From a virus (lineage: Duplodnaviria > Caudoviricetes), in IMG/VR virus record IMGVR_UViG_3300025296_003000, positions 1 through 53,374 of that record: a DNA stretch of 53,374 bases. The stretch is one strand, 5' to 3'. This document shows, piece by piece, positions 21,060 to 53,374 of the stretch. The position numbers and the translations under genes are program-made. The notes beneath the pieces were generated by a model that saw only the letters and a program-made list of their open reading frames with translations, had not been told where the DNA came from and did not search any database. Each line of letters begins with the position of its first letter. Within the stretch, counting starts at the first letter, position 1.

Positions 21060-21727
21060 CGCAGGGTAGATCAGTGGTAGATCGCAGGACTCATAATCCA
21101 GAGGTCGCCGGTTCGAGTCCGGCCCCTGCAACCAAACAAAAACGCACCGGATTGACACCGGCAAAAGAGATATTCTGCCAGCAGGTTGTCCTCAATGGAT
21201 GGGACCAAAGCGCAGCATATCGTGTCGCTTATCCTAACTCTCAGAAATGGAAGGATAATTCGGTTCACGTCAAAGCCAGCCAGCTTATGAAAACCGATAA
21301 GGTCCGGATAAGGGTCGAAGAGCTGAAGGCCAAAGTGGCAGAGCTGGCTGAAAAGAAGTTCGAGATCGATGCTGATTACGTCCTGCGCCGGCACCATGAG
21401 ATCGACGCTATGGACGTTGCAGACATCATGGATGACGACGGCAACATCAAGCCGATCAAGGAATGGCCGAAGCCATGGCGCCAAAGCATATCCGGCATTG
21501 AGGTTACAGAGCTGACAGCAGGGAAGAGCGATCAGAAAACACTGATTGGCGTCCTGAAGAAGATCAAGTTCCCCGACAAGATTCGCAATCTGGAGCTGTT
21601 GGGCAAACACATCTACGTCAATGCGTACCGCGAGCAGGTAGGTGTTACTGGCGCCAACGGGGAGCCTATCAGGGCGACGTGGGAGCTGGTCACAGTAGCG
21701 GCAGGCGCGCGTGAAAGTACGGGTTGA
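21056..21727 (+). CDS. terS: Terminase small subunit (start uncertain: TTG 21056, GTG 21074 or TTG 21152)
   Basis: LTPAKE.FC......DQSAAYR.AY, AS.L....V..R..EL, KIKFPDK..NLELLGKH; precedes terL. Confidence 0.9.
   Translation: MTQGRSVVDRRTHNPEVAGSSPAPATKQKRTGLTPAKEIFCQQVVLNGWDQSAAYRVAYPNSQKWKDNSVHVKASQLMKTDKVRIRVEELKAKVAELAEKKFEIDADYVLRRHHEIDAMDVADIMDDDGNIKPIKEWPKPWRQSISGIEVTELTAGKSDQKTLIGVLKKIKFPDKIRNLELLGKHIYVNAYREQVGVTGANGEPIRATWELVTVAAGARESTG
21060..21134 (+). tRNA. tRNA-Met(CAT), initiator (fMet)-type
   Basis: Full cloverleaf: C-GCAGGG/CCCTGC-A acceptor with C1xA72 mismatch, GATC/GATC D-stem (A11:U24), CTCATAA loop, GCCGG-TTCGAGT-CCGGC T-arm, encoded ACCA. Confidence 0.92.
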
Positions 21728-23174
21728 GATCCCTGAAAAGCTACAGCCGTTATTTCTGAAGCCCAAGCGCTTCAAGGTGGCGGTAGGCGGTCGAGCTGGA
21801 GGGAAGTCGATAGCGTTCGGTGATGCGTTTCTGCGTTGCTGTGATGCAGGAGAGAGACTTTGTTGCGGCCGGGAGTTTCAAAACTCCATCGAGGACTCGG
21901 TTCACTCGCAGCTGAGAAGCCGGATCGATGAGCTTGGCGTTACTGATTACCTTCACGCCGAAGCGACCAAGATCAAATCACGATCGGGCGGCGAAATCTT
22001 CTATCGCGGCCTGAGCAGGAACGTCACAGCATTCAAGTCCACATTCGGTATCAAGAAGCTGTGGATTGAAGAGGCGCAAACCCTTTCCCGGGAAACGATT
22101 GAGATTGTCTTGCCGACAATTCGATCAGTACCAGGCAAAGGCGATGATCCGGATCCACCTGAGATCTGGATGAGCGCCAACCGTGGCAGCAGTCAGGATC
22201 CTTTTAGTCTGGCTTTTCTGCAGCCGTATGAGGGTGCGCTGGAGAAGTACGGCTACTACGAAGATGACGACATCATCGTGGTGGAGATCAACTGGCGCGA
22301 TAACCCATTCTTTCCCCCGGAAATGGAACAGCAGCGCCTGCGTGACAAGCGAGTCATGCCCAGGGCGCGCTATGACCACATCTGGGAAGGTAAATACAGC
22401 GATACCGTGGAAAACGCGATCATTCGTCCTGAGTGGTTTGATGCTTGCATCGATGCCCACATCAAACTTGGCTGGAAACCGCTTGGCCGCGAATCGATCG
22501 TGCATGATCCGTCCGATGGCGTGGATCCCGCGGCATACATCTATCGCAAAGGCAGTGTAATCCTTGCAGCTGATGAGTGCGCGGAAGGCACCGAGATCAA
22601 CGACGCAATGGATTGGGCGACAACAGCCGCCGAAGAGATCCGCGCCGATATGTTTATCTGGGATGGTGACGGAATGGGTGCAGGCCTTCGCGCCCAGGCC
22701 AAGAAGTCGCTGACCGGGAAACAATGTCAGCTGAGCATGTTCAAAGGCTCCCTGAGCCCCATGAGCCCGAATCAGGTATATCAGCCCATCGATGGTGAGC
22801 TGAAGAAGGCGGCAACCAATGCCAACACCTTCGCCAACCAGCGGGCACAGTTCTACTGGCTACTCAGGGACAGGATGTTTAAGACCTACCTGGCAGTAGA
22901 GCGCGGCGAGTACCAGAACCCCGAGGAAATGATCAGCTTTTCCTCAAGGATCTCGTTGATAGGGAAGATGCGGGCAGAGCTTTGCCGGATTCCGAGACTG
23001 CCAGGCGGCCGGATCCAGCTAATGAGCAAGCCCGACATGAAAACCAAGCTGAAACTCAAGAGCCCTAACCTTGCCGACTGCGTGATGATGTCCGAGTCGG
23101 CGGATTATGTGGCGGTAAAAGAATCGTATGGCGCTGGCAGTGGTCAGCGCTCCAATCCAGCAGGGTGGACCTGA
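21711..23174 (+). CDS. terL: Terminase large subunit
   Basis: Walker A GGRAGGKS, REFQNSI..S, Walker B WIEEAQ, N..DNPFFP, SPNLAD. Confidence 0.95.
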   Translation: MKVRVEIPEKLQPLFLKPKRFKVAVGGRAGGKSIAFGDAFLRCCDAGERLCCGREFQNSIEDSVHSQLRSRIDELGVTDYLHAEATKIKSRSGGEIFYRGLSRNVTAFKSTFGIKKLWIEEAQTLSRETIEIVLPTIRSVPGKGDDPDPPEIWMSANRGSSQDPFSLAFLQPYEGALEKYGYYEDDDIIVVEINWRDNPFFPPEMEQQRLRDKRVMPRARYDHIWEGKYSDTVENAIIRPEWFDACIDAHIKLGWKPLGRESIVHDPSDGVDPAAYIYRKGSVILAADECAEGTEINDAMDWATTAAEEIRADMFIWDGDGMGAGLRAQAKKSLTGKQCQLSMFKGSLSPMSPNQVYQPIDGELKKAATNANTFANQRAQFYWLLRDRMFKTYLAVERGEYQNPEEMISFSSRISLIGKMRAELCRIPRLPGGRIQLMSKPDMKTKLKLKSPNLADCVMMSESADYVAVKESYGAGSGQRSNPAGWT

Positions 23175-28485: not shown

Positions 28486-29172
28486 ATGGGCACAGTCAAG
28501 GTAACGGAGGTTGTCGGCCAGGCAGCATACATGCTGACCGATGAGGGCAACGTCCGATGGACAAAGCAAAATCTGCTGACGTGGTTCAACGAAGCGCAGC
28601 GCGCTCTGGTGTCACGTCGCCCGGATACCCTGGCTGTCAATGAATCGTTCAAATGCGCAGCAGGCGTGAAGCAGCGGATCCCTGATATCGGGGTACAGCT
28701 CATCGACATCGAACGCAACACGAATGGCAAAAACATAACGCAAGTCGAAAAGCGCCTGCTCGATAACCACGTACCGGACTGGGCTGCAGAAGATCAGAGC
28801 GTCACTGCTCAGCACTTTATGTTTGATCCTCGCTACCCAAAGATTTTCTATCTCTACCCGCCTGCAAAAGCGGAGATAGAGGCAGCCGGCGAAACTCCGG
28901 CTGTGCCAGGCACTGAGCTGGAAATCGTCTATACCAAATGCCCGGATACGGTTGCGATCACCGATGAGCAATGGAATGCGGACAACACAACCATCGAGGT
29001 TGATGACGTTTGGGCGAACGCTCTGCAGGAGTACATTCTCCACCGAGCATGGGCGAAGGATTCAGAGAGCGCAGGCAACCAGGCAAGGTCCAGCGGTCAC
29101 TTCCAGACCTTCCGGATGATGATCGGTGACATAACTGAGGCGGATGCCGCAATAACGGCGGACGAAAAATGA
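28486..29172 (+). CDS. Head-tail adaptor (DUF6682-like)
   Basis: L.D....RW....LL.W.NEAQ......RPD, F.LYPP, AL..YIL.RA..KD.E. Confidence 0.8.
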   Translation: MGTVKVTEVVGQAAYMLTDEGNVRWTKQNLLTWFNEAQRALVSRRPDTLAVNESFKCAAGVKQRIPDIGVQLIDIERNTNGKNITQVEKRLLDNHVPDWAAEDQSVTAQHFMFDPRYPKIFYLYPPAKAEIEAAGETPAVPGTELEIVYTKCPDTVAITDEQWNADNTTIEVDDVWANALQEYILHRAWAKDSESAGNQARSSGHFQTFRMMIGDITEADAAITADEK

Positions 29173-29783
29173 ATCTTGATCAGCTGATACCCCAGCTCAA
29201 AACGTATGTCAGCGGATGCCCGCAACCGATCATGCGCGAAGAATTGCGTCGCTCTGCTCGTCGCTTCTTTGAGCGAAGCACAGCCTGGCGGGTTGATGTC
29301 TATGTCGGCATTGGCGCCGGGATGGATTACGCCAATCTGAAGCTGCCAGCGGCCACCATGCAGGTTTCGATTATCCGCGCTCAACTGACCGACGATAAAG
29401 ACCCGCTTAGCCCGGCACCTGCTGGGCTTAACTGGGCATCGACTGAGCGTGGCAAGCCGAAATTCTATAGCGCTGACCGGCCCGGGAAGATCGGCTTTTT
29501 CCCGCTTCCCAACGACACGCACAGCTGCAAAGTCAGAGTGGCGGTAAAGCCTGAGCTTGGATCCCCCATCATTCCCGACGAACTGGGCGATATGTACGGG
29601 GAGCTGATCGCTGAAGGCGCTGCAGCCAGCATCCTGAGCATGCCGGATTCCGACTGGTACAACCCAAAACAGTCCGATTTTCATAGAGCAAACGCCGATC
29701 GCGGCATCGTTGAAGCACGCACCAAAGTCGACATGGGTTACAGCAACACTGGCGGCCGTGTTTACGGCGGACAATTCATCTGA
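29169..29783 (+). CDS. Head-tail connector-like virion protein
   Basis: V.GCP.......LR..A..F...S..WR, I..GA...L..MP...W.NP. Confidence 0.7.
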   Translation: MNLDQLIPQLKTYVSGCPQPIMREELRRSARRFFERSTAWRVDVYVGIGAGMDYANLKLPAATMQVSIIRAQLTDDKDPLSPAPAGLNWASTERGKPKFYSADRPGKIGFFPLPNDTHSCKVRVAVKPELGSPIIPDELGDMYGELIAEGAAASILSMPDSDWYNPKQSDFHRANADRGIVEARTKVDMGYSNTGGRVYGGQFI

Positions 29784-29794
29784 GGTAACCAAGA

Positions 29795-40387: not shown

Positions 40388-41893
40388 ATGGCAGCAGCAG
40401 ACTTTGTTCAGGGGGCTCTGACGGGCTACCAATTCGTTGATGGTCAGATTCGCCAAAACGAGTACGACAATCAGCGCAAAATGGCGATTCAGACGGAGGA
40501 TCAGCGCTATCAGGAAGGAAAGGCGCGGCAGGCCCGCCTCGATGCCGAGAATGCGAACGATCGCGCCTTTACCCGGCAGCGGCTTGAAAGCATGGATGCA
40601 ATTGCGGCAGAGGATCGGCAATTCAATCGCGATCGCTTGCGCAGCCAGGACGCATTCGCCGCGCAGCAGCAGGCTTTAAATCTACAGGACCGTGAGCGGG
40701 CTGAGCGTGACCGATTCCGACAGGAACTGAAGGAAGCTGCCATCTTCGAGGCGCAGCGCGCCATGGCAGGCGGCTCTCCGTTCTCCAAAGAGCGGCACGA
40801 TCAGCTGGAACAGGAGGGCATGGGGTGGCTGTCCTTCTACCATGCTGTTGAGCATCCAGAGACCCACGACTCAGCACTCCGCCTTCGTCCGATTCTGGAG
40901 CAGCTGGGATCTGGCGACACCAGCGTGGTCAATTCTGAGGAAGCGCTGCAGATATTCAATGACATCTACGGCGACGAGATACAGCAGGGCATAGGTGAAT
41001 TCAATTCAGCGCGGAATGCCCGTGTTGTTGAGAAGCGTATTGCCGGATTTGAGCCTGGGCCCAATGGCCGGCTTGCCGCCATGATCGAAGTGACCCTGGA
41101 CAACGGCGAAACGTACATTGCTCCACGCACTCGAAACGGCAGTACGTCGCCTGATGACCCCGTTGTACTGATCGACCCGGGAACCGCAATGGATGACCTG
41201 ATGGGCCGGTATCGGCTGGCAGTTGAAGCAGAGGATCGGCGCGAGGACATCGAAAACCAGTACCGAGCGGTTTATGGCGCTCTGCCGGGTGAGCAGCGCA
41301 GGGAACCGAAGCTGGAGAAGGTCACCGACGCATTCGGAAACACATCATTCTTCACGTGGGACGGGGAAAGCCTGCGCGCTATTCAGCCTGAAAACGCTGA
41401 TTCTGGCTCTGCCATACCCCGCGCCGCGGTTGACGACCTGTTGAGCGATCCATCCCCGGAAGCTATAGCGGAATTCGATGAGGTATTTGGAGAAGGATCT
41501 GCCCGTGCGTTTATTGATCGAAGCCGAACAGGTGAGCAGCGATTCCAGTTTGATCGGTCGGGACTTGATCAGCCAGCACAGCAGCCCCCAGAGCGGCAAC
41601 CATCCCCCGATCAGCAGACACGCAGCGACATTCCCGCCGTCAATGCCGAATCCCTGACGCCGGAGCAGATCGACCAGCTCAGGCAGAGAGTTTCAGAGGT
41701 ATCCGGTGCGCGTGCCGCTGGTCAGCGCGTAGGCGAGGATATGCGCTTTGTTGTCGATTCCCAGGGAAGGATTGTTAAGGCAACGGCCGAAATGCTGTCA
41801 GCCCCGACTCGATACGGTATTCGCCTGATTACTGGCGCTGTTAAAGGCGTTGGCAACTTCCTGTACGGGATCTACGAGGGCGATCAGCAGTAA
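40388..41893 (+). CDS. Putative ejection protein (501 aa)
   Basis: FVQG...GY N-term, coiled coil, Y.AP.T.N.S..PDDPV; position before giant gene. Confidence 0.65.
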   Translation: MAAADFVQGALTGYQFVDGQIRQNEYDNQRKMAIQTEDQRYQEGKARQARLDAENANDRAFTRQRLESMDAIAAEDRQFNRDRLRSQDAFAAQQQALNLQDRERAERDRFRQELKEAAIFEAQRAMAGGSPFSKERHDQLEQEGMGWLSFYHAVEHPETHDSALRLRPILEQLGSGDTSVVNSEEALQIFNDIYGDEIQQGIGEFNSARNARVVEKRIAGFEPGPNGRLAAMIEVTLDNGETYIAPRTRNGSTSPDDPVVLIDPGTAMDDLMGRYRLAVEAEDRREDIENQYRAVYGALPGEQRREPKLEKVTDAFGNTSFFTWDGESLRAIQPENADSGSAIPRAAVDDLLSDPSPEAIAEFDEVFGEGSARAFIDRSRTGEQRFQFDRSGLDQPAQQPPERQPSPDQQTRSDIPAVNAESLTPEQIDQLRQRVSEVSGARAAGQRVGEDMRFVVDSQGRIVKATAEMLSAPTRYGIRLITGAVKGVGNFLYGIYEGDQQ

Positions 41894-42156
41894 TTGAGGT
41901 ATTTGGCGAAGCGATTGGTGGCCAGCTGCTCGAGCCGCTTTTCCTCGCTTACCGCGACGCAGGACTGCGACTGAGCGCCAGACTCAGGAAATTGCAATCG
42001 ACATGCCTGGTGAACCAGCTGGGCAGCAGCATCTGAATCGACTCCCCCAATGTTTTCAAGAATGCACTCGTCATAGCTTGCTACCGTCTTTTCTGGGGCG
42101 CACCCAGTCGAGAGAGTCACGGCGCTTGCCAGCAAGACGATCACCAGAGTTTTCAT
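41884..42156 (-). CDS. 90-aa Cys-rich lipoprotein, antisense to the late operon; candidate superinfection exclusion protein
   Basis: MKTLVIVLLASAVTLSTG-C signal/lipobox; AAGG SD; YDECILEN..G..SD.AA..V..AC (reminiscent of VF_A0006-type four-Cys proteins); C-terminal NRFAKYL. Confidence 0.8.
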   Translation of the reverse strand: MKTLVIVLLASAVTLSTGCAPEKTVASYDECILENIGGVDSDAAAQLVHQACRLQFPESGAQSQSCVAVSEEKRLEQLATNRFAKYLNYC

Positions 42157-42181
42157 AACATAAACCTTTGCAGGTAAAAAA

Positions 42182-45100
42182 ATGGCCAATCGGTTTTCAA
42201 AGTATGTCGCGCCCACCGAAAACGAACCGCAGAGCAACAGTAACAGATTCGCAAAGTATCTGCCCCAACAACAGCCCGTCCGCGAGGAATCGCAAGGCAG
42301 GGGTATTACGGGCGTTGCCAAGGATCTCGGTGTGTCAGCTGCAGGTGGTGCGGCCAACGTGGTTAAAGCGGCCGGTGATATCTATGGCGTTGTAACAGGC
42401 GACTACGATAACGCGGCTTCACGCGCTGGGACGGCTGGCCGGGAATATTTCAACGAGCGTAAATCGCCGGAACTGCAGGCGCTTGAGCAAGCCAGACAGG
42501 AAAAAATCGAAGCGGCCGAAACCGAGCTTGGCAAAGCAGGCGTTGCCCTTTGGGAAACGATTAAATCACCGTCATTGTGGTCATCATTCCTCGCAGAGCA
42601 GGCACCAATGCTACTTCCCGTTGGTGCTGCAGGTCGCGCAACTGGATCTGTTGCTGGCCGCATTGCCTCCAATCAGATAGCAGGGCGCGCAGCCGCCCGA
42701 GGCATGAGTGAAGAGGCAACCGAAAGAGCCGTCAACCGATTCGCCGGCCAGACCGCGAGCAGAGCAGGCACAGCTGGTGCCGTGGCCACTGGCGCAGCAA
42801 TGCACGGCTCAGAATCTGGATCCTCGACATACGATGAGCTTCTGGATTTGCCCGATGAAATCTGGCAAGAAAACGATGATCTTCAGCGCCTGATGGCTGA
42901 TGGCCTGCCCTTTGAAGATGCCAAGGTCGCACTGGCTGAGCGCTATTCCAGACAGGCGGCATTTGGTGCCGGCGCTGTTTCCGTCCTCACAAATATGCTG
43001 CCTGGTGCCAGAATCCTCGAAAGCCGATTGGCTGGCAATCGATTGACCGGATCAACTACCGGCAATGTCGTTCGCGGCTTCCTTGGTGAAACCGCTCAGG
43101 AAGGCTTGGAAGAAGGCACAGGCACAGTTTCCACGAACCTTGCTGTTGGTAACGTCGATCCTGATCGCGAATGGCAGGAAGGCGTTGGCGAAGCCGTAGG
43201 CATGGGCGCGGCCGCTGGCCCGTTCGGTGCTGTTGCTGGTGCTACCAACAGACGGCCACAGCCCGCTCCGTCCGCTATTCGCGTCCAGAACAACCCAGAG
43301 CCAGAACCTTCAGAGGAAGTCGATTCGCAGCCTGACTCCCCGAATCAGGACGGCAGCATCGATATGATCACGCCAGCTGAATATGATCCAGCGCCTGACA
43401 TGATCGAGCCTGCGCCGTACCGTCCGCTTCGCGCCGTTATGAATCCACAGGAGCAAGAGGCTTTCGACCTGTTGGAGCGTGAGCGTCAGGAGCAGATGGA
43501 GCGCGATTACGAAGCGGCACTGCAGCAGCGATCTGAGCAAGAAATCACTCGCGCCAATGAGGAAACCGCGAAACAGGAGATCATTCAGCGCTACACACCC
43601 GAAGCCGCGCCAACGAATCCAGCCATGGCCAACGCACTGCTTGGCGCCTATATCCGAAACACACCTACCGCGATCGATACCGGCGAGACTGATATCGAGG
43701 CGTCAAACAACGAATTCCAGCAGCGCTCGAATCAGTCTGCCGTTCGTCCCGCCCCAAGCACTCCGGACCCGGCCGTCGATCGCGCCCCTATGGACCCGCG
43801 AATCCAGCGCCTCCAGGCTATCCGCAAAGAGTATGAATCAGCCTACGATCGTGGCTCACTGAATGACACACTGGCTGCCGTGGAGAAGGCAAACGCTGAG
43901 ATTGATGCCTTTGCCAAAGAGTCTGTTGAGGCGGGTACGGCGCCATTCTATCGAAGCACTGCCGGTGATATGTATTTCAGTGTCACGCCGTCAACCCGGC
44001 AACCAGGCAAATACCAGATCACCACATTCAACGATACCGGCGCCCTGGGCGATACGGTCGTCAACTCGCTGGATGAGGTTCACAAGGAAATCAACGGCGC
44101 TCACGCTGACCCTGTTCCTGCAGCTGAAGCGGAGCAGATCATGGCGCGTCTGGCCAAAGCAGAGGCTGAGTATCAGCAGCGAAGAGCAGCATTTGAGCAG
44201 GCACAGCAGGCACCTGCAGCTGAAACTGCCCCGCAACCTGCGCGCGCATTAATCGCCGCTGATCAGGCTGACATTGAGCGCAGAGCAGTCGAAGCAGAGC
44301 GACAGGCCAAACTCGCAAAACGACGCCGCGTGGATACCGAAAACGACACAATCGTGCGCGCGGCCATTAAACTCGGGGGCATTAAGCCCCAGTGGAAAGA
44401 GGATATTACCGGCGACACCAAAGGCAACACGAATGTGCCTGGCGTTGGCTTCCTGTTTACCGATCGCGGCACCAGCATCGATGATATGGCCACCAAACTG
44501 CACGAGGCCGGGTATATCCCTGACTCGGAAATGCAGAATCTCGGTGGTGTGCCCTGGTTGAACGAGCGCCTTGGCAATGAGCTGGCCGGTCGCGGTAAAA
44601 CATACTCGCTTTCATCCAGCAAAGCCGTGGATGAGATTCTGGCCGCGCGTGATGAGCAGATGGAAATCGAGCGCGAAATGCTGGCCAGCCAGCGCGAGGC
44701 GGAGTATGCTGCAATCGAGGCGGAATACGGTCCAGAAGCAGCTGAACTGGCTCGTCAATATGACGAGGACATGGACAATATCAACGAGGATCTGTCCTCA
44801 GAGGCCGATTACTATGAGCAACAACTCCAGCAGCGGGAAGAAACCGCACAAGCCCGGCTCGATGAATCACTCACAGATGCCGAAGCAGCCGCCCGTGATG
44901 AGCAGCTACGGCAAGCTGATGACCAAGAAAGTCGACAACCTGCAGAAGCTGGTCGACGTGCGCAAGCAGCGCCTGAACCAGACCAGCTAACCCTCGTCCA
45001 GCAATCAGAGTCTGAGCGCGCTCAGGCCGAATCCCAGACAAAAGCCCGCCAACAGGCAGAAGATCAGAAACGCGCTCAGGACCGCGCCAAAGCGGAAGCA

Positions 45101-48100
45101 GACGCAGAGCGTGATGACTTCCGCCTCTCCGGATCAAAAGCACCCGCCGATACCGCAAATTCGTATGGCCAGAACGATATGTTCACGGCTACGCGAGGCA
45201 GCCAGAAAGCGCAAAAAGCGGTGGTCGTTACTCCCTCCGAAGGCTGGACCGATAGCCTTCAGGAAACCCGGAAGCTGGCGAATCAGTTGATCGAGGCCGG
45301 AGTCCTTACACGCTCTGAATTGGATCCAATCTGGGGAGAGAAAGGGCCGCTTGCCGCCCGCACCCTAAAGGCACTGCAGGACTACCGGAAGGCTGAAAAC
45401 AAAACGCCGGGTGATGCCGTGGCTGCAGCCGCAGCAGAAGTCGATACCGATCCGACCGAGGCCCAGAAAGAAGCTGGCAACTATCGCAAAGGGCACGTCA
45501 GCATCCAGGGGCTCAATATCAGCATCGAGAATCCGCGCGGATCCACTCGGTCCGGCACTGACCCCCAGGGCAAGCGCTGGGAAAATACCATGGCGCACCA
45601 CTATGGCTACATCAAGCGCACCGAAGGCGCCGATGGTGAGCAGGTGGACGTGTTCATCGGCGAAACCCCAGATAGCGAGCAGGTTTTTGTCATCGACCAG
45701 ATCAATCCTGACAATACGTTCGATGAACACAAGGTCATGATTGGTTTTGAGTCGCAGGCGGATGCTGTTGCAGGGTACAAGTCAAACTACAGCCGAGGCT
45801 GGAAGGTGGGCCCAGTGTCCTCAATCACCATGGCTGAATTCAAAGCCTGGCTCGCAGATGGTAACAACGCAAAGCCATTTAGCAACAAGGTGATCGCTAA
45901 GAATAAGCGGCCGGAAAAGCCGAAGAAAGCACCCCAGCCAGCGGCCTCACAAGAGGCCGTTTCTGTTTCTGAGGAACCAAAATCAGCCGTTGATCAGCAC
46001 CTGGCGTTCGTCGGAAAGATGAGTGATGGGGAAGTCACACAGAAAGAGTACATCGAAGCGTTTGATAGCCTTGTCGCCGCCCGGGAAACGGTAATCAATG
46101 AGCTGTCCAGCAAAACCAAGGATGTACTGCTCAAAATGCTCCCGCCGATGAAGGCTATTCGCTATAAGTCTGAGAAAAAAGACTCAGTGGTTACGTCCAC
46201 TTATACGGATATGCTTGATGATTTTATGCCACCCACATCAAAGGGCGGCATGTTCAGCTACACGCCAAAGTTCGGCGGCGATTACATCCAGAACCACATT
46301 GATGCCATACGTCCAAAAATTGAGCAGGTGACTCAGCAAGACCTGGACGACTATGCCAAACGGGTTTCAGATGCCCGGCAGAAGCGCGCAAAGGCGAAGC
46401 GTGAGGCACTGGCCGGCATGGAGAATCCTCAGACCCTTGATGACTTTGTGAACATCATCAGGCACAAAAATCAGGAAGAGGGGATGAGCATTAAGGATGC
46501 AAGGCTCAGCCTCACGCCAGATCAACGGGCTCGTTTTGATGAGCTGTACGCCCAGCACAATCGCAGCCAGCGAAACTACCGTACAGATCAGGCGCGCACA
46601 GCAGTGCCGGAAAATACCGTAAAGACCGGTGCCGAAATCATCGCAACCAAGCATACCCGCGACAACTACGACTTGTTTGTTGTCCAGGCAGCCGACAGGG
46701 TTGCACGTGAAACATACCTGCAGTGGCTATCGGCCGCCAAAAAGCTCGGTGGTTGGTACTCAAAATTCAAAGGCAATGGCGCCGTACCTGGCTTCCAGTT
46801 CAAAACGCGAGAAGCGGCTGAAGCGTTCCAGCAATATGTCAGCGAAGGCGATTCCGCCTCAATCCGCGATCAGGCCCAAGTGAAGCGCGATGCCCTCAAG
46901 GACGACCGTAGCCAGAGCGCGGTGCAGCGACTCCGTGAAATGGGTGGAAATCTCAATGCGCGCGCTGAAGCGGCATTGAATCAGGACAGGAAAACCAACA
47001 CAGCGCGTAGAGCTGGCATGGCAGCCAGGGCTGAGCGAGCAGCAGAAGCTGACAAAGCAACCGCTGCAACCATGCTCAAAATTGCCGATGCTATCGAAGC
47101 TGGCGAGGCTCAGTTCCTGGATAGTGTCAGAACGAAAGCCCAGGTCGACATGCTGGAAACCATGATCAGCGTCGCTCACTCTGAGCAGATGCGCCAGAAG
47201 TATCCAAGCTATTCTGAGCGCGAAAAGCACAACGATGAGCGGCCTGATATTGAGACGGCCGATTTTGCCGAATATCCGTCTTTCACATTGTACCGCTCAG
47301 ATTGGGCAAAGCTCGGCCGCCAGCTTTCTGAGACTGAAGGCGGTAAAACTCTCGGCAAGAAAATACTGAGTGTTGCCGACGATGTGACAAAAGCCTATCT
47401 CAAGTTTGCCAATGACAACCTCACTGACGTGACCGCTTTCCGCAAGGCAGACGGATCACTGCCGGCATTCAAGTCGAAGGCAGACGCTGAAGAATCAATA
47501 CGCAGATCCGGATACCGCGGCAAGGCTATTGTCCTCCCGGTGAAGCGCGGCGAAAACTTGATCGTGCTGAGCCCGTCTGAAGCGCAAAAGCGCGGTATTT
47601 GGGCCGGTGACAATGATGCCCGCATAACTCTTCGCAGGGAATTCGTTGACGAGATACTTGGGAAGATGCGCCAAAAGGGTATAGACGTGCCCTGGCAGCT
47701 GGAAACAGCAAACGAAAAGCTGAAGCGCCTTTCCTCAATGGGTATCGAGTCAGCTCCAGAATTCAGAGCTGCGCTGCGTGAGTTCATTGCGCTGCAGGAA
47801 GTCCCGAAGGCTCCGGACAGGATCAAGGAAATGGAACGGGCGATGATCGGCCGCAAGAAGGACGGCCTTGATTTCTTCCCGACACCCGCGTCAATTGCCG
47901 ACGAAATGGTAGAGACGGCCGGAATTGAGGATGGAATGACTGTGCTTGAGCCATCGGCGGGCATGGGTCATATCGCTGAACGCATCCGTGAGGCAGGCGT
48001 AGAACCTGATGTGGTCGAGTTTTCTGCAGACCGGCGCGAGTTGCTGGAGGCCAAAGGATTCAATGTCGTTGGCAATGACTTCCTTGAAGTCGACGGAAAA

Positions 48101-51100
48101 TACGATCGGATCATCATGAATCCGCCATTCAGCAATCGAAGGGACGCGGAACACGTTAAACACGCTTACAGCCTGCTCAATCCTGGCGGCAAGATCGTTG
48201 CCATCATGGGTGAGGGCGTTTTCTTTGGAAGTGACAAGACGGCCAACGAGTTCCGTGGCTGGCTTGAGAGCGTAGGTGGCACAGACGAGAAACTTCCAGA
48301 GGGCGCATTCATGGATGCGAGCCTGCCAGTGAATACTGGCGTCAATGCCCGCATGGTTGTGATCGAAAAGTCAGAATCACAGGAAGATGTGCGCTTCTCC
48401 CGTTCCCCCAGCCCAGAAACTCAGGCGTTTAAGCGCTGGTTTGCTGACAGCAAGGTGGTAGACGCCCAGGGCAATCCACTTGTGGTTTACCACGGATCTC
48501 CTGATGCCAGATTCGTTAATCAAGATGGCATTTTCAAGGGAGAATTTGAACGGTACGGAATGGGCGAGAAGGGCGGCGCTTTCTGGTTCGCCAAAGATCG
48601 TGCGACAGCCGCAACCTATGCGGATGACCGCAGAGCATTCGACTACCAGAATGCTGAGGCTGGCGTCGTATCGGCGTACTTGAGCCTGCAAAACCCATTG
48701 GTAATTGACGGCCTCGGCAAGACATGGAGAGAAGCCCAGCAGCGCGGGAAAACGAGCGATGTAATTCAGCAAGCCAGGGAAGAAGGGCATGATGGCGTCA
48801 TTATCAAAAACGTGCTGGACAACTACAGCAATTTTGAAGGCAACAGAAAAGGCAGGACAACCGACACATACGTGGTTTTCAGCTCGACCCAGATCAAGTC
48901 AGTAGATAATTCTGGCGCCTTTGATCCAGAGAATCCTGATATTCGGATGTCTCGCACCAGCGATGGCGTCTCAATCCCGGCCACTAAAGCCAAAGCCCTT
49001 GTTTCTGCCATCACCAGCCGCTTCCAGAACGCCCCTGACGTGATTGTCGTCCAGTCCATGCAAGACCAGCAGGTGCCAGAGGCTGTGCGCCGTGAGGATG
49101 CCAAGCAGCGATCGCAGGGCGCTTCGGGAGACCCGGAAGGCTTCTACTACCAGGGCAAGGCTTACATTGTGCTGGACGGCCTGACAAAGCGTTCAGGCGA
49201 ATCAGATGCCGAGGCGCTATTCCGTGTATTCGCCCATGAGGTGCTGGGGCATGCAGGCCTGCGCGGGCTGTTCCGCTCGGATCTGGCCAAAGTGCTGAAC
49301 GAGGTAGCCATAAAGCGCCGTGATGACATGCGCCGCAAGGCCAATGAGTATGGTCTCAAGCTGTCCGATCAGAACGACCGGATGATTGCGGCCGAAGAGA
49401 TATTGGCTGAAATGGCTCAGACCAATCCGACAAATAGCCTTGTGGTTCGAGCTGTTGAGGCCATCCGTCAGGCGCTTCGCAAACTGTTTTCGTTGCTGCC
49501 GCGCAGCGTTCAGGATTCTCTTGGCAACAACGCGTTTGCCGATTGGATTACTGGCATGAGTGATGCCGAGATTATCAATCGATTTATTGTCCCCGCGCGT
49601 GAGTATATCCGTGGTGGCCAGGCGGATCCGGCCAGCGACGCAGTTCCTGCGTTCCAGCGCGCATACCATGGCACTCCGTATCGATTCGATCGATTCAGCC
49701 TGGACGCCATTGGAACCGGAGAAGGGGCACAGGCCTACGGCTGGGGGCTCTATTTTGCTGGTAAACGCGAAGTCGCTGAGTTTTACCGGGATATGGTTGT
49801 AGGCAACAACAACGACCTTTTCGATCACTATGATCAGCTTTCACCAGAGGCACTGGCCGTCTACGATGAATATTCTGCGCGTCTGGAAGATGACCCGGAC
49901 CTGGCCAACGAATTCCGCGAAAAAATGGAGGAAGTTGGGTACACGTTTGATACCAATATGTATGGGGAGCCGACTGGCCTGCGAAAAATAGGCGACGGCA
50001 ACGTATATCAGGCTGACATTCCGGACGATTCTGAGTTGCTGGATTGGGATAAACCGCTCAATGAGCAATCAGAGACGGTCCGCGAGCGACTTGGCCTGAA
50101 CGATGATGCCGCCGATTTCTTCAAATGGTACGAGGAAAGCGTAGTTTCCAAAGTCGGAAATGATTATCGCTGGGACAATTTGACCACGACACAAAGACTT
50201 AAACAGGTTGCTCGCTTCGAGAAAGAAACGGGGAACAAAGCGCCTCGATCAATCACTCTGCTTCAACCGGGGAAGGTTACTGGCGAAGATTTCTATTTGA
50301 ACTTAGCTCTTGATGATGAAGTAGGTGGCTCATATCGTGACGCATCCCTGTATCTGGACTCACTTGGCATCCCAGGGCTCAGGTATTTGGACGGAGATAG
50401 CCGATACTCTTCCGGAGGCGAGATAATCGCCATTTGGCAGGGGGACCAGAAAAACATCGCGGATAAACCAACAGGCAAATGGTTCGCAAGAGTTCGCCGC
50501 GATTCTGACGGATCCAAGACCAGTATGCCGCTGTCCTCAAAGGCCGAGGCTGAAGCATGGGCCAATAATGAAATCAATGGTGGAAGCTATAACTACGTCA
50601 TCTGGGACGAAAGCCGGGTAACAGTTGAAGCTGTGAACGATGAGCTTCTGCAGGCTGAGGCCGCTGCTTCTGATGACACTGCTGCCTTTAGTCGCGCCGC
50701 CACCATGGACCTGCCCAGGGCTGAGCGCCAGTCTGAGTGGGCCCAAGAGAATCGCCGGCTGCGCGAACAGGACACAGCGCTATGGCAGAAAGCCAAGACC
50801 CTGCTGCGTAAATACTTTGCCCCAGGCGGGCTGCTTCCTGAGTCAGTATTCAACGAGAAAATCGCGCGGGACGGTAAGCTGGGTGTTGTCGAAATTACGG
50901 TTCAGGATCTGGTCCGTTCGCTCGAAGATGCCATCCAGAAGGACTACGGGCTGAAGGCCAACCGGATGACCGAAAACCAGATGCGCAAGATATCTGATGC
51001 GCTGGCCGGCAAGGTTACCGATCAGATCCGCGACAACACGCGCACCGCGATCGTTGCGATGCGTCAGTACATGGATCACTTGTCAGGCCAGTATGCTCAA

Positions 51101-53374
51101 ATGCTCTGGCAACAGGTTCAGGACATGCAGGCCCAAGGCGTGAGCGATGATGTGCTGGCGGCCAAGGTGGACTTGTTGAATACGATCATGACCAATCAGG
51201 GCGAGTATGTTCATCGTTCATATCAGGTATTTGACGACCCCGATTGGTACAAGAATGTCGATGAGTCAGTGGTCGACAATGCCCGCCAATATCTGATTCG
51301 ACGCTATCAGGAGGCCAACCCCGGCGCCCGACGATCTGACGCTCAAGCGCGAGCTGAGGTTATTCTCAGCGACATTCTGAAGAACGATACCGCGTATGAC
51401 TCCATGGAGTCGTTCATCAAGGAATCGAAGCTGGGTGCCAAGGATCTGAGCATCCTCAAACGACGCAAGGATATAGCGCCTGAGATCCGGGCACTGATGG
51501 GCGAGTATATCGACCCGCGCATCAACTTCGCCAAGTCTGCTACGAAAATGGGACGGCTGATCTTCAATCAGAAGTTTCTGGATAAGGTGCGCGAGCAGGG
51601 CATGGGAGTATTCCTGTTTAACGAGGCAACCCGACCGCCAGGCACCGAGCAAATCGCTGCAGACGGATCTGAAGTGTATGCCCCGCTGAATGGGCTCTAC
51701 ACGTACAAAGAAGTCGCTCAGGCAATGAAGGACGCGCTTGGCCGTGAGCAAATGTCTGGATGGTACAAGGCAATTGTTCAGGTCAACGGCATGGTGAAGG
51801 GTGGTAAAACGATCCTGTCACCAACCACGTCAGCGCGTAACTTCCAGTCAGCGATGTTCTTTTCGATCGCCAATGGCCATTTTGATCTGACCCAGGCTCG
51901 AAAGTCGCTGGCCTTGATCAACAAGTTCAGCAATCAGGAAAAGCTGGCCTACGTGAAGAAAATGAAGGAGCTGGGCGTTATTTATGACAACCCATACGCC
52001 GAGGAAATGATGGATCTGCTGCGCGAAAGCCGGGCAGATTCATTCTTCAGCGACAACAGGACCGCCGAGGCCATTCGCGCATCATGGGAGTTTGCGCGCG
52101 ACGTGTACTCGTTTGGTGACGACTTCTGGAAGGTGATCGGTTTTGAGAACGAGAAAGCCATGCTCCTGAAGCACACCAGAATGACTGTTGAGCAGGCTGA
52201 GGCGGCCGCTGCTGACCGTATCCGCAACAACTACCCGACATACTCGATGGTCGGTAAAGCGATCCAGTGGCTGCGACGCTTCCCGCTGGTGGGCACGTTC
52301 GTCAGCTTCCCGGCCGAAATCATCCGCACCACGTTCAATATGGTTAAAACGGTTCGACAAGACTGGAATACGCCGGGCATGCGGCCAATTGCAGCCCGCC
52401 GAGCGCTTGGCATGAGCATGGTGGCTGGCTTCGCGTATGCTGCCCAGGAAATCGCCAAGGCCATGTTCGATGTGGATGACGATGATGAAGAGGCTATCCG
52501 CATTCAGGCCGCACCCTGGCAGCGCAACTCCAATATCGTGGTTACCGGGCGTGATGATGATGGAAACTTGAGATACGTGGATATCAGCTTCCTCGACCCG
52601 TACAACTACTTTAAGCGGCCAATCACGGCGATCATGCGCGACCAGCCGCTTCAGGATTCGCTGGTATCCGCTGCCGCCGATATGCTGTCACCATTTTTCG
52701 GCACTGACATTGCTGCCGGCGCATTGATGGAAATCTATGCCAACAAAACCTCGACCGGCGCCGCGGTATTCAAGGTGAGTGATTCAGTCGATCAACAGCT
52801 GATGGATATTGCGGATCACCTTCGTAAAGCTGTCCAGCCTGGCATTGCATCGAACCTTGAGCGCACCTACAAAGCGATGAGTGGGGAGCGATCGCCGAGC
52901 GGCCGTCAGTACAACATGGTCGATGAGGGGCTTGGATGGGTAGGCTGGCGAGTTTCTACTCTGGATCCAAAGTCGGCGCTTTACTATCGCTCGTTTGAGT
53001 TTGCAGATGCGAAGGCAGAGGCGACCCAGACGCTATCGCGTGTACTCAATGATCCGAATCGGGTTACTGATCAGGAAATTGCCAACGCATACCAGCGATC
53101 GATGAGAATGCGTCAGCAGGCCTACGACAACATGATCAAACTGATAAACGCCAGCCGTAAGAGCGGGCTCAGCGATCAGGACATTCGCGACGTTCTGAGG
53201 GCCAGCTCGGTATCGAATGCGGACGCCTTCAATCTGCTACTCGGCAGAATGACGCCATGGCAGCCGACACGACAAGCGGAAGCCTATGCGTATCGGCGGG
53301 CCCAGGCGCTGATTGGTGTGGAGCAGGCTGAAATCATCCGAGGCCGATACCAGCAGGCAAGGACACTCAACTGA
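42182..53374 (+). CDS. Giant polyvalent (probably injected) protein, 3730 aa
   Basis: Gly/Ala hydrophobic N-term; iPPase-like domain (EAGNY.KGH, HYGYI..T.G.DG..VDVFIG, FDEHKVM.GF) ~45458-45880; N6A MTase (FFPTP, LEPSAG.G, MNPPF) ~47870-48370; ART-like (FK.WF..SK.VD..G.PLVVYHGS, GHDGVI, QIKS) ~48410-48955; zincin HEVLGH 49235-52; second ART-like (YHGTP..FD.F....IGTGEGAQAYGWGLYF) ~49661-50630. Confidence 0.9.
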   Translation: MANRFSKYVAPTENEPQSNSNRFAKYLPQQQPVREESQGRGITGVAKDLGVSAAGGAANVVKAAGDIYGVVTGDYDNAASRAGTAGREYFNERKSPELQALEQARQEKIEAAETELGKAGVALWETIKSPSLWSSFLAEQAPMLLPVGAAGRATGSVAGRIASNQIAGRAAARGMSEEATERAVNRFAGQTASRAGTAGAVATGAAMHGSESGSSTYDELLDLPDEIWQENDDLQRLMADGLPFEDAKVALAERYSRQAAFGAGAVSVLTNMLPGARILESRLAGNRLTGSTTGNVVRGFLGETAQEGLEEGTGTVSTNLAVGNVDPDREWQEGVGEAVGMGAAAGPFGAVAGATNRRPQPAPSAIRVQNNPEPEPSEEVDSQPDSPNQDGSIDMITPAEYDPAPDMIEPAPYRPLRAVMNPQEQEAFDLLERERQEQMERDYEAALQQRSEQEITRANEETAKQEIIQRYTPEAAPTNPAMANALLGAYIRNTPTAIDTGETDIEASNNEFQQRSNQSAVRPAPSTPDPAVDRAPMDPRIQRLQAIRKEYESAYDRGSLNDTLAAVEKANAEIDAFAKESVEAGTAPFYRSTAGDMYFSVTPSTRQPGKYQITTFNDTGALGDTVVNSLDEVHKEINGAHADPVPAAEAEQIMARLAKAEAEYQQRRAAFEQAQQAPAAETAPQPARALIAADQADIERRAVEAERQAKLAKRRRVDTENDTIVRAAIKLGGIKPQWKEDITGDTKGNTNVPGVGFLFTDRGTSIDDMATKLHEAGYIPDSEMQNLGGVPWLNERLGNELAGRGKTYSLSSSKAVDEILAARDEQMEIEREMLASQREAEYAAIEAEYGPEAAELARQYDEDMDNINEDLSSEADYYEQQLQQREETAQARLDESLTDAEAAARDEQLRQADDQESRQPAEAGRRAQAAPEPDQLTLVQQSESERAQAESQTKARQQAEDQKRAQDRAKAEADAERDDFRLSGSKAPADTANSYGQNDMFTATRGSQKAQKAVVVTPSEGWTDSLQETRKLANQLIEAGVLTRSELDPIWGEKGPLAARTLKALQDYRKAENKTPGDAVAAAAAEVDTDPTEAQKEAGNYRKGHVSIQGLNISIENPRGSTRSGTDPQGKRWENTMAHHYGYIKRTEGADGEQVDVFIGETPDSEQVFVIDQINPDNTFDEHKVMIGFESQADAVAGYKSNYSRGWKVGPVSSITMAEFKAWLADGNNAKPFSNKVIAKNKRPEKPKKAPQPAASQEAVSVSEEPKSAVDQHLAFVGKMSDGEVTQKEYIEAFDSLVAARETVINELSSKTKDVLLKMLPPMKAIRYKSEKKDSVVTSTYTDMLDDFMPPTSKGGMFSYTPKFGGDYIQNHIDAIRPKIEQVTQQDLDDYAKRVSDARQKRAKAKREALAGMENPQTLDDFVNIIRHKNQEEGMSIKDARLSLTPDQRARFDELYAQHNRSQRNYRTDQARTAVPENTVKTGAEIIATKHTRDNYDLFVVQAADRVARETYLQWLSAAKKLGGWYSKFKGNGAVPGFQFKTREAAEAFQQYVSEGDSASIRDQAQVKRDALKDDRSQSAVQRLREMGGNLNARAEAALNQDRKTNTARRAGMAARAERAAEADKATAATMLKIADAIEAGEAQFLDSVRTKAQVDMLETMISVAHSEQMRQKYPSYSEREKHNDERPDIETADFAEYPSFTLYRSDWAKLGRQLSETEGGKTLGKKILSVADDVTKAYLKFANDNLTDVTAFRKADGSLPAFKSKADAEESIRRSGYRGKAIVLPVKRGENLIVLSPSEAQKRGIWAGDNDARITLRREFVDEILGKMRQKGIDVPWQLETANEKLKRLSSMGIESAPEFRAALREFIALQEVPKAPDRIKEMERAMIGRKKDGLDFFPTPASIADEMVETAGIEDGMTVLEPSAGMGHIAERIREAGVEPDVVEFSADRRELLEAKGFNVVGNDFLEVDGKYDRIIMNPPFSNRRDAEHVKHAYSLLNPGGKIVAIMGEGVFFGSDKTANEFRGWLESVGGTDEKLPEGAFMDASLPVNTGVNARMVVIEKSESQEDVRFSRSPSPETQAFKRWFADSKVVDAQGNPLVVYHGSPDARFVNQDGIFKGEFERYGMGEKGGAFWFAKDRATAATYADDRRAFDYQNAEAGVVSAYLSLQNPLVIDGLGKTWREAQQRGKTSDVIQQAREEGHDGVIIKNVLDNYSNFEGNRKGRTTDTYVVFSSTQIKSVDNSGAFDPENPDIRMSRTSDGVSIPATKAKALVSAITSRFQNAPDVIVVQSMQDQQVPEAVRREDAKQRSQGASGDPEGFYYQGKAYIVLDGLTKRSGESDAEALFRVFAHEVLGHAGLRGLFRSDLAKVLNEVAIKRRDDMRRKANEYGLKLSDQNDRMIAAEEILAEMAQTNPTNSLVVRAVEAIRQALRKLFSLLPRSVQDSLGNNAFADWITGMSDAEIINRFIVPAREYIRGGQADPASDAVPAFQRAYHGTPYRFDRFSLDAIGTGEGAQAYGWGLYFAGKREVAEFYRDMVVGNNNDLFDHYDQLSPEALAVYDEYSARLEDDPDLANEFREKMEEVGYTFDTNMYGEPTGLRKIGDGNVYQADIPDDSELLDWDKPLNEQSETVRERLGLNDDAADFFKWYEESVVSKVGNDYRWDNLTTTQRLKQVARFEKETGNKAPRSITLLQPGKVTGEDFYLNLALDDEVGGSYRDASLYLDSLGIPGLRYLDGDSRYSSGGEIIAIWQGDQKNIADKPTGKWFARVRRDSDGSKTSMPLSSKAEAEAWANNEINGGSYNYVIWDESRVTVEAVNDELLQAEAAASDDTAAFSRAATMDLPRAERQSEWAQENRRLREQDTALWQKAKTLLRKYFAPGGLLPESVFNEKIARDGKLGVVEITVQDLVRSLEDAIQKDYGLKANRMTENQMRKISDALAGKVTDQIRDNTRTAIVAMRQYMDHLSGQYAQMLWQQVQDMQAQGVSDDVLAAKVDLLNTIMTNQGEYVHRSYQVFDDPDWYKNVDESVVDNARQYLIRRYQEANPGARRSDAQARAEVILSDILKNDTAYDSMESFIKESKLGAKDLSILKRRKDIAPEIRALMGEYIDPRINFAKSATKMGRLIFNQKFLDKVREQGMGVFLFNEATRPPGTEQIAADGSEVYAPLNGLYTYKEVAQAMKDALGREQMSGWYKAIVQVNGMVKGGKTILSPTTSARNFQSAMFFSIANGHFDLTQARKSLALINKFSNQEKLAYVKKMKELGVIYDNPYAEEMMDLLRESRADSFFSDNRTAEAIRASWEFARDVYSFGDDFWKVIGFENEKAMLLKHTRMTVEQAEAAAADRIRNNYPTYSMVGKAIQWLRRFPLVGTFVSFPAEIIRTTFNMVKTVRQDWNTPGMRPIAARRALGMSMVAGFAYAAQEIAKAMFDVDDDDEEAIRIQAAPWQRNSNIVVTGRDDDGNLRYVDISFLDPYNYFKRPITAIMRDQPLQDSLVSAAADMLSPFFGTDIAAGALMEIYANKTSTGAAVFKVSDSVDQQLMDIADHLRKAVQPGIASNLERTYKAMSGERSPSGRQYNMVDEGLGWVGWRVSTLDPKSALYYRSFEFADAKAEATQTLSRVLNDPNRVTDQEIANAYQRSMRMRQQAYDNMIKLINASRKSGLSDQDIRDVLRASSVSNADAFNLLLGRMTPWQPTRQAEAYAYRRAQALIGVEQAEIIRGRYQQARTLN

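Follow-up and report, generated by a model that had tools for sequence, protein, structure and literature searches.

Among the closest described systems to the locus reported here is SieA of phage P22, a prophage membrane protein that acts on gp16 and gp20, two ejection proteins, and so blocks DNA entry (Leavitt et al. 2024, PMC10883804). The present locus lies in a DNA stretch of 53,374 bases (the window), which is an IMG/VR provirus record of a member of the Caudoviricetes (IMGVR_UViG_3300025296_003000), estimated to be 92% complete. In its right arm, a small antisense gene encoding a predicted lipoprotein of 90 amino acids (aa) is divergent from a gene for a giant polyvalent protein, and the C-terminal tail of the lipoprotein carries the same seven residues, NRFAKYL, as the N-terminal extension of the giant protein. 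The original prediction, made from the sequence of the window, took the lipoprotein for a periplasmic decoy of an ejectosome docking peptide, displayed by the lysogen, that jams the entry of related phages. If so, it would be a new variant of prophage-encoded DNA-entry block, set apart by peptide mimicry.

Like SieA, such a lipoprotein would be expressed from a prophage, stop DNA injection by related phages, and target the conduit made by ejection proteins (PMC10883804). The two differ in that the escape sites from SieA lie in the C-terminal regions of gp16 and gp20 and not in an N-terminal tag, and no sequence relation between them was found, the window protein being without a PHROG or Pfam match. 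Ltp of Streptococcus thermophilus phage TP-J34 is a surface-exposed prophage lipoprotein that also blocks DNA injection (PMC3952083). It comes from a siphovirus of a Gram-positive host and has another fold and family, and no peptide shared between Ltp and its target has been reported. Ltp is believed to act on a protein that leaves the virion first, and Bebeacua et al. are said to have found in 2013 that this target is the tape measure protein. The genes of Llp and Cor sit beside the gene for the receptor-binding protein whose function they counteract. T5 Llp and phi80/T1 Cor are small outer-membrane lipoproteins of superinfection exclusion (PMC9586334; bioRxiv 10.64898/2026.03.26.714494), but they bind the receptor FhuA and block adsorption or triggering, with no mimicry of a phage peptide described there and no sequence relation to the window protein. 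TrbK of RP4 and EexN of IncN are small, periplasm-facing lipoproteins of mobile elements that stop DNA entry from a like element; the window protein matches their NCBIfam models only below threshold, and its family was not found in the plasmid collection. Colicin translocation domains have disordered N termini with short motifs (TolB box, TonB box) that dock on periplasmic host proteins, a parallel to the role proposed here for the tags in the disordered N terminus of the giant protein. However, colicins are bacteriocins with other motifs, and colicin immunity does not work by copying the box.

In phage T7, the N-terminal part of gp16 stays in the periplasm after ejection and tapes the gp15 tunnel (PMC8954989), so that the N terminus of the largest ejection protein binds a co-ejected protein, a precedent for docking of a tag in the periplasm. 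In contrast to a tandem tag of seven residues, gp16-N is a folded domain of 228 residues with transglycosylase. To our knowledge, no decoy of gp16-N is known. In the HXS periplasmic defence, too, the entry of phage DNA is stopped by an effector in the periplasm (Li et al. 2026, PMC13128918); it is host encoded, depends on radical S-adenosylmethionine (rSAM) maturation, and is proposed to bind DNA electrostatically, with no peptide mimicry described in that source.

The genes and peptide copies on which the comparison turns are as follows (positions are those of the window).

41884 to 42156, minus strand: gene of the 90-aa lipoprotein, read here as a moron, stop codon included (open reading frame [ORF]; ATG at 42156-42154).
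42182 to 53374, plus strand: giant polyvalent protein gene of at least 3730 codons, which runs off the record end (ORF list and Pfam).
41896 to 41916, minus strand: NRFAKYL, the tag copy of the lipoprotein, in which NRFAKY is residues 81-86 (sequence, six-frame scan).
42188 to 42208, plus strand: tag copy 1, NRFSKYV, residues 3-9 of the giant protein (sequence, six-frame scan).
42242 to 42262, plus strand: tag copy 2, NRFAKYL, residues 21-27 of the giant protein (sequence, six-frame scan).

In the six frames of all 53374 bases, NRF[AS]KY occurs exactly three times, and all three occurrences fall inside 370 bp. NRFAKYL is spelled aat cgc ttc gcc aaa tac ctc in the lipoprotein gene and aac aga ttc gca aag tat ctg in the giant gene. 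Six of the seven codons differ, through 7 changes in 21 nt that are all synonymous, and the motif, its positions, and its differing codons are thus as originally predicted. The rarity claimed for the match holds for its position and not for its kind. When the mature lipoprotein (71 residues) was shuffled and compared with residues 1-40 of the giant protein, a shared 7-mer arose in 0 and a shared 6-mer in 1 of 20000 shuffles, and against the whole 3730-aa giant protein a shared 7-mer arose in 2 of 2000. By contrast, 31% of 200 shuffles (mean, 0.39) contained some 7-mer common to any two window proteins, a genuine look-elsewhere effect that makes a bare match unremarkable. The DNA pattern of NRFxKY has five matches in the 3.6-Mb metagenome-assembled genome (MAG) that carries a sister prophage (locus L043), three of which are this trio within 360 bp, and the reversed control pattern has none. 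NRFAKYL is unchanged in the sister prophage, and no difference is listed in a contig from an RNA library. In addition, NRFAKY is kept in two homologues of the lipoprotein, P0022 and P0052, which are only 41% and 34% identical to it overall. For these positions, chance resemblance is far from sufficient.

A scan of IMG/VR with the alignment of the small-protein family retrieved a second pair in locus L047, which is identical over 7.2 kb to L046. It encodes an 80-aa secreted family member, 29% identical to the window lipoprotein. The gene of this small protein is tail-to-tail with the one before it and diverges from the gene of a polyvalent giant protein of at least 1955 aa. The giant protein carries ART-PolyVal, LPD23, and metallopeptidase domains and is a polyvalent protein by the same marks as the window giant (see below). 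The small protein ends in ...GAFDDIFFPKD, and the giant protein starts with DFDDIF, followed by GAFDDIF. Between the two GAFDDIF copies, four of the seven codons differ, all synonymously, and shuffles gave such a match in 0 of 20000. The GAFDDIF pattern was found in 50 stretches of all IMG/VR, and two matches on opposite strands about 400 bp apart were present only in L046/L047. The window phage and L047 are otherwise unrelated, in that their giant proteins share one internal domain and their upstream genes are unlike. P0132, which is 61% identical to the L047 small protein, retains FDDIFF. Since the codon differences are all synonymous both here and in L047, and since NRFAKY is kept in homologues of 34-41% identity, the match between lipoprotein and giant protein is, as judged from sequence, one at the peptide level and under selection. 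Across related prophages, the tail of the lipoprotein had been expected to co-vary with the N-terminal motif of the giant protein. Motif matching is indeed found in homologues (NRFAKY in P0022 and P0052, the GAFDDIF pair in L047), and one independent, unrelated phage matches tail and giant protein with a different peptide, but the pairing is rare.

The tails of other small proteins include NPFAKY, NRFSSF, NPFDKFD, NPFDQFD, NFFDQFD, and PWERDW. Matches between unlinked proteins were also found: the tail GNPFDQFD of P0078 equals the repeat of giant protein P0007, and KPWERDW of P0034 and L050 resembles NPWERDW of giant protein P0002. Comparison of unlinked tails and tags at the level of 7-mers gave one match in the N-terminal bin and none in seven control bins. 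Words of five residues (K=5) shared between giant N termini and their own loci numbered 2.4 per locus, hardly more than the 1.5 per pair in the cross-locus control, and were set aside; outside the window, the longer words in common either were rich in Gly/Ala/Pro or fell in frames with stop codons, and a 7-mer of L019 is internal to the giant protein.

Tandem tags at the N terminus are widespread among phage proteins, including at least one ejection protein. A helical, Gly/Ala-rich domain is common to 20 relatives of the giant protein's N-terminal domain and to 41 viral loci, and ahead of this domain many of the giant proteins carry a short peptide of their own, repeated two to five times, such as RDLLA (five times), D.DPF (three times), and NPFLARR, NPFSDPEFG, PWE.DW, NRFGG, and IVDPFK (twice each). 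The DNA pattern of NPFDQFD is present in at least 120 stretches of viral contigs, and the following counts refer to the 120 matches listed. In 117 of the 120 ORFs the peptide lies in the first 60 residues, and in 94 it falls within the first 10. Two or more relaxed copies occur in 89 of the 120, and the set includes 113 distinct N termini. The complete ORFs among these matches range from 71 to 3640 residues, with a median of 682. Of ten NPFDQFD proteins compared with PHROGs, seven were without a family, and the other three matched families of unknown function, a major head protein, and a "DNA transfer protein," respectively. The last is a homologue of the P22 gp16 ejection protein by tblastn, and its tag lies in an unmatched N-terminal extension. 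[KN]PWERDW stands at residues 2-7 in nine of 12 matches, and a second copy follows in seven of these nine.

The protein matching a major head family, found in L171 (5547-7292, minus strand) and L181, has 582 aa and an NPFDQFD tag, and its C-terminal half matches phrog_21712 with an E value of 1.8e-38, so the tag is not confined to classical ejection proteins. A conserved protein of about 250 aa in L143, L148, L159, and L165 has a single NPFDQFD after the start (MSSNNPFDQFD...) followed by a nonrepetitive domain and may be another class of tagged virion protein. More distant giant relatives (L013, L039, L040, P0020/P0021, L008, L010, L014, and L022) are without tags of seven residues and have at their start either a duplicated unit of about 20 residues (...NY.GAN.ATK.AI..., twice) or pairs of units like TY.I..PDG; in those lineages, the N-terminal extension may be a small repeated fold. 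The NPFDQFD-tagged protein of L111 had no match in an isolated phage by tblastn, and no tandem tag is evident in the DarB-like giant protein of Erwinia phage Pavtok, which is distantly related to the N-terminal domain.

The alphabet of tags appears to be undescribed. A literature search yielded no paper with NPFDQFD, NPFDQF, or NRFAKY, the sole match to PFDQFD being an unrelated mouse-skin paper, and a search on ejection protein, periplasm, superinfection exclusion, and mimic yielded nothing of this kind among the titles listed. The text of Iyer et al. 2017 (PMC5512222), supplements aside, contains neither "lipoprotein" nor "transmembrane" in the part consulted, and the part consulted of a review on ejection proteins (PMC8954989) does not mention a tandem N-terminal motif. 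As for the idea that the specificity of exclusion is set by the motif, the motifs are not private, NPFDQFD and [KN]PWERDW being carried by many phages. Specificity would therefore be class-wide and not strain specific.

The phage is podovirus-like and temperate, present as a prophage in a marine gammaproteobacterium. The right arm forms a virion module on the plus strand, with terS, portal-like, and major head genes, an internal virion protein, a tail fibre, and five small or medium virion-module genes. The antisense gene had been called the only convincing minus-strand gene in this arm, and this agrees with the PHROG comparison, in which the other long minus-strand ORFs there, at 29100-29792 and 21074-21775, have no match. 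Both are taken as shadow ORFs because the plus-strand genes overlapping them match PHROGs, namely, a virion structural protein and terS. The giant protein has Pfam matches to InPase (E value of 1.5e-55, 187 bits) and ART-PolyVal (E value of 6e-20, 72.9 bits) and is assigned to the polyvalent proteins because it carries these domains. With several effector domains, very large size, and a place in the virion module, it has the marks by which Iyer et al. 2017 define them, and polyvalent proteins occur also on conjugative plasmids (PMC5512222). It is presumably a head-packaged protein that is ejected along with the DNA. Its ORF is cut by the record end at 53374, so the boundary call of the provirus leaves the phage truncated, and the full protein exceeds 3730 aa. 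Its N terminus is divided as follows.

42182 to 42298, plus strand: disordered N-terminal extension, residues 1-39, which carries both tags (AlphaFold2 [AF2]).
42299 to 43180, plus strand: all-helical, Gly/Ala-rich, conserved N-terminal domain, residues 40-333 (alignments and AF2).

In the AF2 model (alignment A2), residues 1-39 are predicted without secondary structure at a predicted local distance difference test (pLDDT) score of <50, and helices begin at residue 42. The helices of the N-terminal domain span residues 42-323, with a mean pLDDT of 59.8.

Three further features define the surroundings of the antisense gene.

40388 to 41893, plus strand: 501-aa virion-module gene (phrog_601) upstream of the giant gene (ORF list and PHROG).
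42157 to 42181, no strand: divergent intergenic spacer of 25 bp (sequence).
41863 to 42214, no strand: single metatranscriptome contig of 353 nt (depth, 32.8).

The lipoprotein gene and the 501-aa gene share 10 nt at their 3' ends, and with a spacer of 25 bp the promoter of the lipoprotein must fall within the 5' end of the giant gene. In all 41 loci of giant relatives, only -4 to 148 bp separate the giant gene from the gene upstream, with a plus-strand ORF of at least 70 aa abutting the giant gene at the position of the 501-aa gene; in the window, the gap is 288 bp and holds the antisense gene. Because the flanking genes are adjacent in 41 of 41 relatives, the antisense ORF reads from sequence comparison as a real moron between two otherwise adjacent virion-module genes. 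The gene is absent at this position from each of these relatives, and the peptide match is, as had been predicted, not a recent DNA duplication.

The sister prophage L043, from the MAG of a marine gammaproteobacterium, shares 93.6% nucleotide identity over 8.2 kb with the window and has the ORF and the motifs intact; the alignment reaches only to 52647, which is the end of the L043 DNA compared. The two lipoproteins have 92% amino acid identity, with 8 synonymous and 7 nonsynonymous differences between the genes and a ratio of nonsynonymous to synonymous change (pN/pS) of 0.27, and the neighbouring genes have pN/pS values of 0.04-0.09. In the metatranscriptome library, the 353-nt contig covers just the lipoprotein gene, the neighbouring contig at 41688-41838 has a depth of 5.9, and there is none on 42215-43000. 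Such contigs carry no strand, end, or level information, and the contig is a weak hint of expression. DNA runs X3-X5 contained identical short contigs only.

The predicted lipoprotein has three parts.

42100 to 42156, minus strand: signal peptide and lipobox, residues 1-19 (...LSTG-Cys19, with Ala at +2; translation).
41971 to 42087, minus strand: helical-hairpin core with two cysteines, residues 24-62, including Cys31 and Cys52 (relatives, alignment A3, and AF2).
41887 to 41961, minus strand: C-terminal module from Cys66 to Cys90, which bears the tag copy (AF2 and homologue P0022).

Its N terminus consists of M-K, 13 hydrophobic or small residues, and then L-S-T-G-C19, and is identical in P0001/L043. 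The protein thus has the basic residue, the hydrophobic stretch, and the lipobox cysteine of the bacterial lipoprotein rule in PROSITE-type definitions. It is probably exported and lipid anchored at the periplasmic face of the outer membrane, a periplasmic place being suggested by the cysteine pairs and the signal and lipobox sequence. In the AF2 model (mean pLDDT, 79.7), residues 3-17 form a helix, and the core has helices at 28-36 and 42-55 with pLDDT values of >90; C31, A45, and C52 are invariant across alignment A3. The C-terminal residues are ...ATNRFAKYLNYC, Cys90 being the last. The original prediction held that Cys66 and Cys90 could staple the motif as a loop. The model has a predicted bridge between residues 67 and 89, and Cys66 and Cys90 are both retained in P0022; the loop bearing the tag is probably disulfide closed. 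Residues 71-86 are modelled as two short helices (71-80 and 82-86), and the C-terminal module is folded back beside the core. Foldseek found nothing in the PDB at an E value of ≤0.001 with the lipoprotein model, and the best score in the Protein Atlas was 0.83, with no named family. A complex prediction for residues 1-333 of the giant protein with residues 20-90 of the lipoprotein scored 0.00, which counts neither for nor against binding.

A HMMER scan of 1.84 billion representatives retrieved 122 relatives of the lipoprotein, most of them matched over core residues 24-62. These small proteins combine the conserved two-cysteine core with a signal peptide, a lipobox, or an N-terminal anchor, so the lipoprotein is more strongly supported as a real gene. 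The nearest curated model is NF041602 of NCBIfam (VF_A0006 four-cysteine family), which the window protein matches with an E value of 2.8e-6 at positions 8-45 of 89; all six family members tested match it with E values of 8e-4 to 2.5e-10 (19-40 bits). At 27 bits against a curated cut-off of 65 bits for this two-unit model, the window protein falls outside the family. By these profile matches, its core is one unit of a VF_A0006-like fold, corresponding to one half of the 89-position model, whereas the tag-bearing tail is not part of that family. P0001, which is 92% identical to the window protein, carries the precomputed label PF28034.1, as a label only. No Pfam or PHROG family was found for the window lipoprotein at an E value of ≤0.01, which places it outside the Cor and Llp families, and tblastn found no match in 50,697 phage records at an E value of ≤10. 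The NCBIfam models of EexN (E value of 0.005, 16.7 bits against a cut-off of 33) and TrbK (E value of 0.042, 13.8 bits against a cut-off of 23) were matched below their cut-offs, and these weak matches, though suggestive in theme, probably reflect the signal peptide. PADLOC yielded no family at an E value of ≤1 for the window protein, the L047 protein, P0078, P0024, or P0054, and its best match for P0022 had an E value of only 0.033.

Single-protein scans of viral contigs with the lipoprotein and with the giant N terminus retrieved no relatives, and the DNA pattern of the core motif had seven stretches in viral contigs, the sole family member being L045. A metagenome scan retrieved 53 loci, nearly all of them longer, nonphage members on short contigs and none with a giant neighbour. 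Among 401 genomes of the class of the sister-prophage host, 13 have family members (G298 included in the count), and the members examined among these are chromosomal, mostly with two core units, and without tag tails. The contigs of P0001, P0022, P0052, P0056, P0067, P0071, P0078, P0080, and P0034 are 579-9688 bp long and come mostly from ENA or Logan. Within L049-L101 (e.g., L057, L089, and L053), many nonphage members consist of the core and a longer, strand-rich-looking C-terminal region with a recurring stretch ...GRA..S.GNYYSGNIYNGN..., and in others the core is repeated in tandem as two to six units. As a periplasmic module, the core is widespread. A 143-aa family member in L050 (2953-3384, plus strand) and L051 (2272-2700) has a tail with KPWERDWS and an NPFD.F-like motif and adjoins recombinase-like ORFs, with no giant gene beside it. 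This protein could be a decoy with several tags that lies outside a prophage virion module, a hint that decoys may also exist outside prophages.

We favour, tentatively and a little short of an even call, the reading that the lipoprotein is a periplasmic mimic of the tag that jams docking of the ejectosome and so brings about superinfection exclusion; the export of the protein, the role of the tag in the periplasm, the competition, and the exclusion are what we infer. Once in the periplasm, the tandem tags would dock on a partner required for assembly of the DNA-entry conduit; this partner might be a co-ejected tunnel protein, much as gp16-N of T7 tapes gp15, or a host envelope protein. The lipoprotein of the resident prophage would present the same tag and compete for that partner, and incoming phages of the same tag class would then fail to complete the conduit or to deliver their DNA, an exclusion by peptide mimicry. 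By analogy, a disordered extension with tags and a periplasm-directed protein with the same peptide fit the precedents of T7 gp16 and P22 SieA. Of the interpretation given in the original prediction, selection on the peptide, the moron, and one independent repeat stand, while the exclusion, the DNA-entry step, and the decoy role keep the conditional form given here.

A number of observations weigh against this reading. The pairing is found in two independent lineages only (the window with L043, and L046, which is the same as L047), no small-family member is present in the 41 giant loci or the 120 listed NPFDQFD loci, and neither the small-protein family nor the pairing was found in the isolated-phage and plasmid collections. 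A tag-like tail is lacking in most of the small-protein family, whose members mostly stand in nonphage contexts, and the unlinked comparison at 6-mers was not clearly above the controls (6 versus 1-6). The tags could also serve a cytoplasmic step, such as procapsid targeting, which would leave a periplasmic copy without an obvious target, and the conservation of tag classes across phages weakens the notion of a private, coevolving lock and key, fitting a conserved partner instead. As regards the gene itself, the pN/pS value of 0.27 rests on 15 substitutions and is weak support because two other frames score about the same. No sigma-70 consensus promoter was found in 41600-42600, the only candidates being weak -10-like hexamers, and no terminator was found for the minus-strand gene. 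Lastly, the RNA evidence is a single contig of a single library, in which DNA carry-over is possible.

A wider reading, which we consider doubtful, is that the ejected proteins of tailed phages bear a small alphabet of N-terminal tandem "address tags" (NPFDQFD, [KN]PWERDW, NRF[AS]KY, [AD]FDDIF, and others), which dock on a conserved partner in the envelope or ejectosome as the DNA enters, and that prophages, and perhaps other mobile elements or hosts, use modular periplasmic decoys made of a VF_A0006-like anchor and copied tags, with two classes combined in L050.

The alternative that survives best, unlikely though by no means negligible, is that the same mimicry serves the lytic cycle of the phage itself, either by stopping progeny from wasting their contents on infected cells or debris, as Llp of T5 does at the level of the receptor, or by occupying the partner of the tag and so timing a step at the envelope. 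The gene lies inside the late virion module, where late transcripts must read through it in antisense, no lysogeny-specific promoter was identified, and Llp of T5 is made early in lytic infection (bioRxiv 10.64898/2026.03.26.714494). Against this, the RNA contig on the small gene has about 5.6 times the depth of that on its late-gene neighbour, and the giant gene has none. An antisense orientation in a late operon is, moreover, typical of prophage-expressed morons, and a lytic role would share the same putative competition step with the favoured exclusion by mimicry.

Improbable, by comparison, is direct binding, in which the core would capture the tag of the incoming giant protein at the membrane and the tail of the lipoprotein would be a pseudo-ligand that closes the site. 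Core and tail are always one polypeptide, the C-terminal module folds back beside the core in the AF2 model, and Ltp of TP-J34 is said, by the same work of Bebeacua et al. in 2013, to act on the incoming tape measure protein. The core is, however, conserved although the tails differ completely or are absent, so it lacks the covariation with the tag that is expected of a binding site.

We give as little credence to a cytoplasmic address tag for the procapsid or portal, whose copy in the lipoprotein would be functionless in the periplasm, arising, for example, from a short inverted duplication of the 5' end of the giant gene when the moron was inserted. N-terminal targeting peptides are known for head-packaged proteins (the capsid targeting sequence of T4), the tagged L171 protein matches a major-head-protein PHROG, and an inverted copy on the other strand would yield the same peptide. 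A neutral relic, on the other hand, would not gather synonymous changes alone, as seen here (7 of 7) and in L047 (4 of 4), would not retain NRFAKY in homologues of 34-41% identity, and would not arise twice with different peptides in unrelated phages, and free-standing family members with tag-like tails exist. That the resemblance is due to chance or the ORF noncoding is scarcely credible, for while some 7-mer is shared in 31% of the window shuffles, Pfam and PHROG matches are lacking, and the pN/pS test is weak, these are outweighed by the position-specific odds (0/20000, the trio within 370 bp, and three of the five genome-wide matches), the 122 relatives with a cysteine core and signal sequences, and the second case in L047.

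How short-tailed phages place their ejected proteins in the envelope, and how prophages block that step, are poorly understood problems, for which the present locus provides two handles, the widespread N-terminal tandem peptides and a putative natural competitor in the periplasm with the same peptide. Even if exclusion fails, a selected, identical peptide in a periplasmic protein and a capsid-borne protein demands explanation. If exclusion by mimicry is true, the tag would be a bait for the long-sought docking partner, and the specificity of exclusion would be predictable from seven residues. Swaps of tag or decoy would then change which phages are admitted, which would bear on host range and on prophage-mediated immunity in natural communities, and, were the wider reading of a shared tag alphabet true as well, entry exclusion by peptide mimicry would be programmable.

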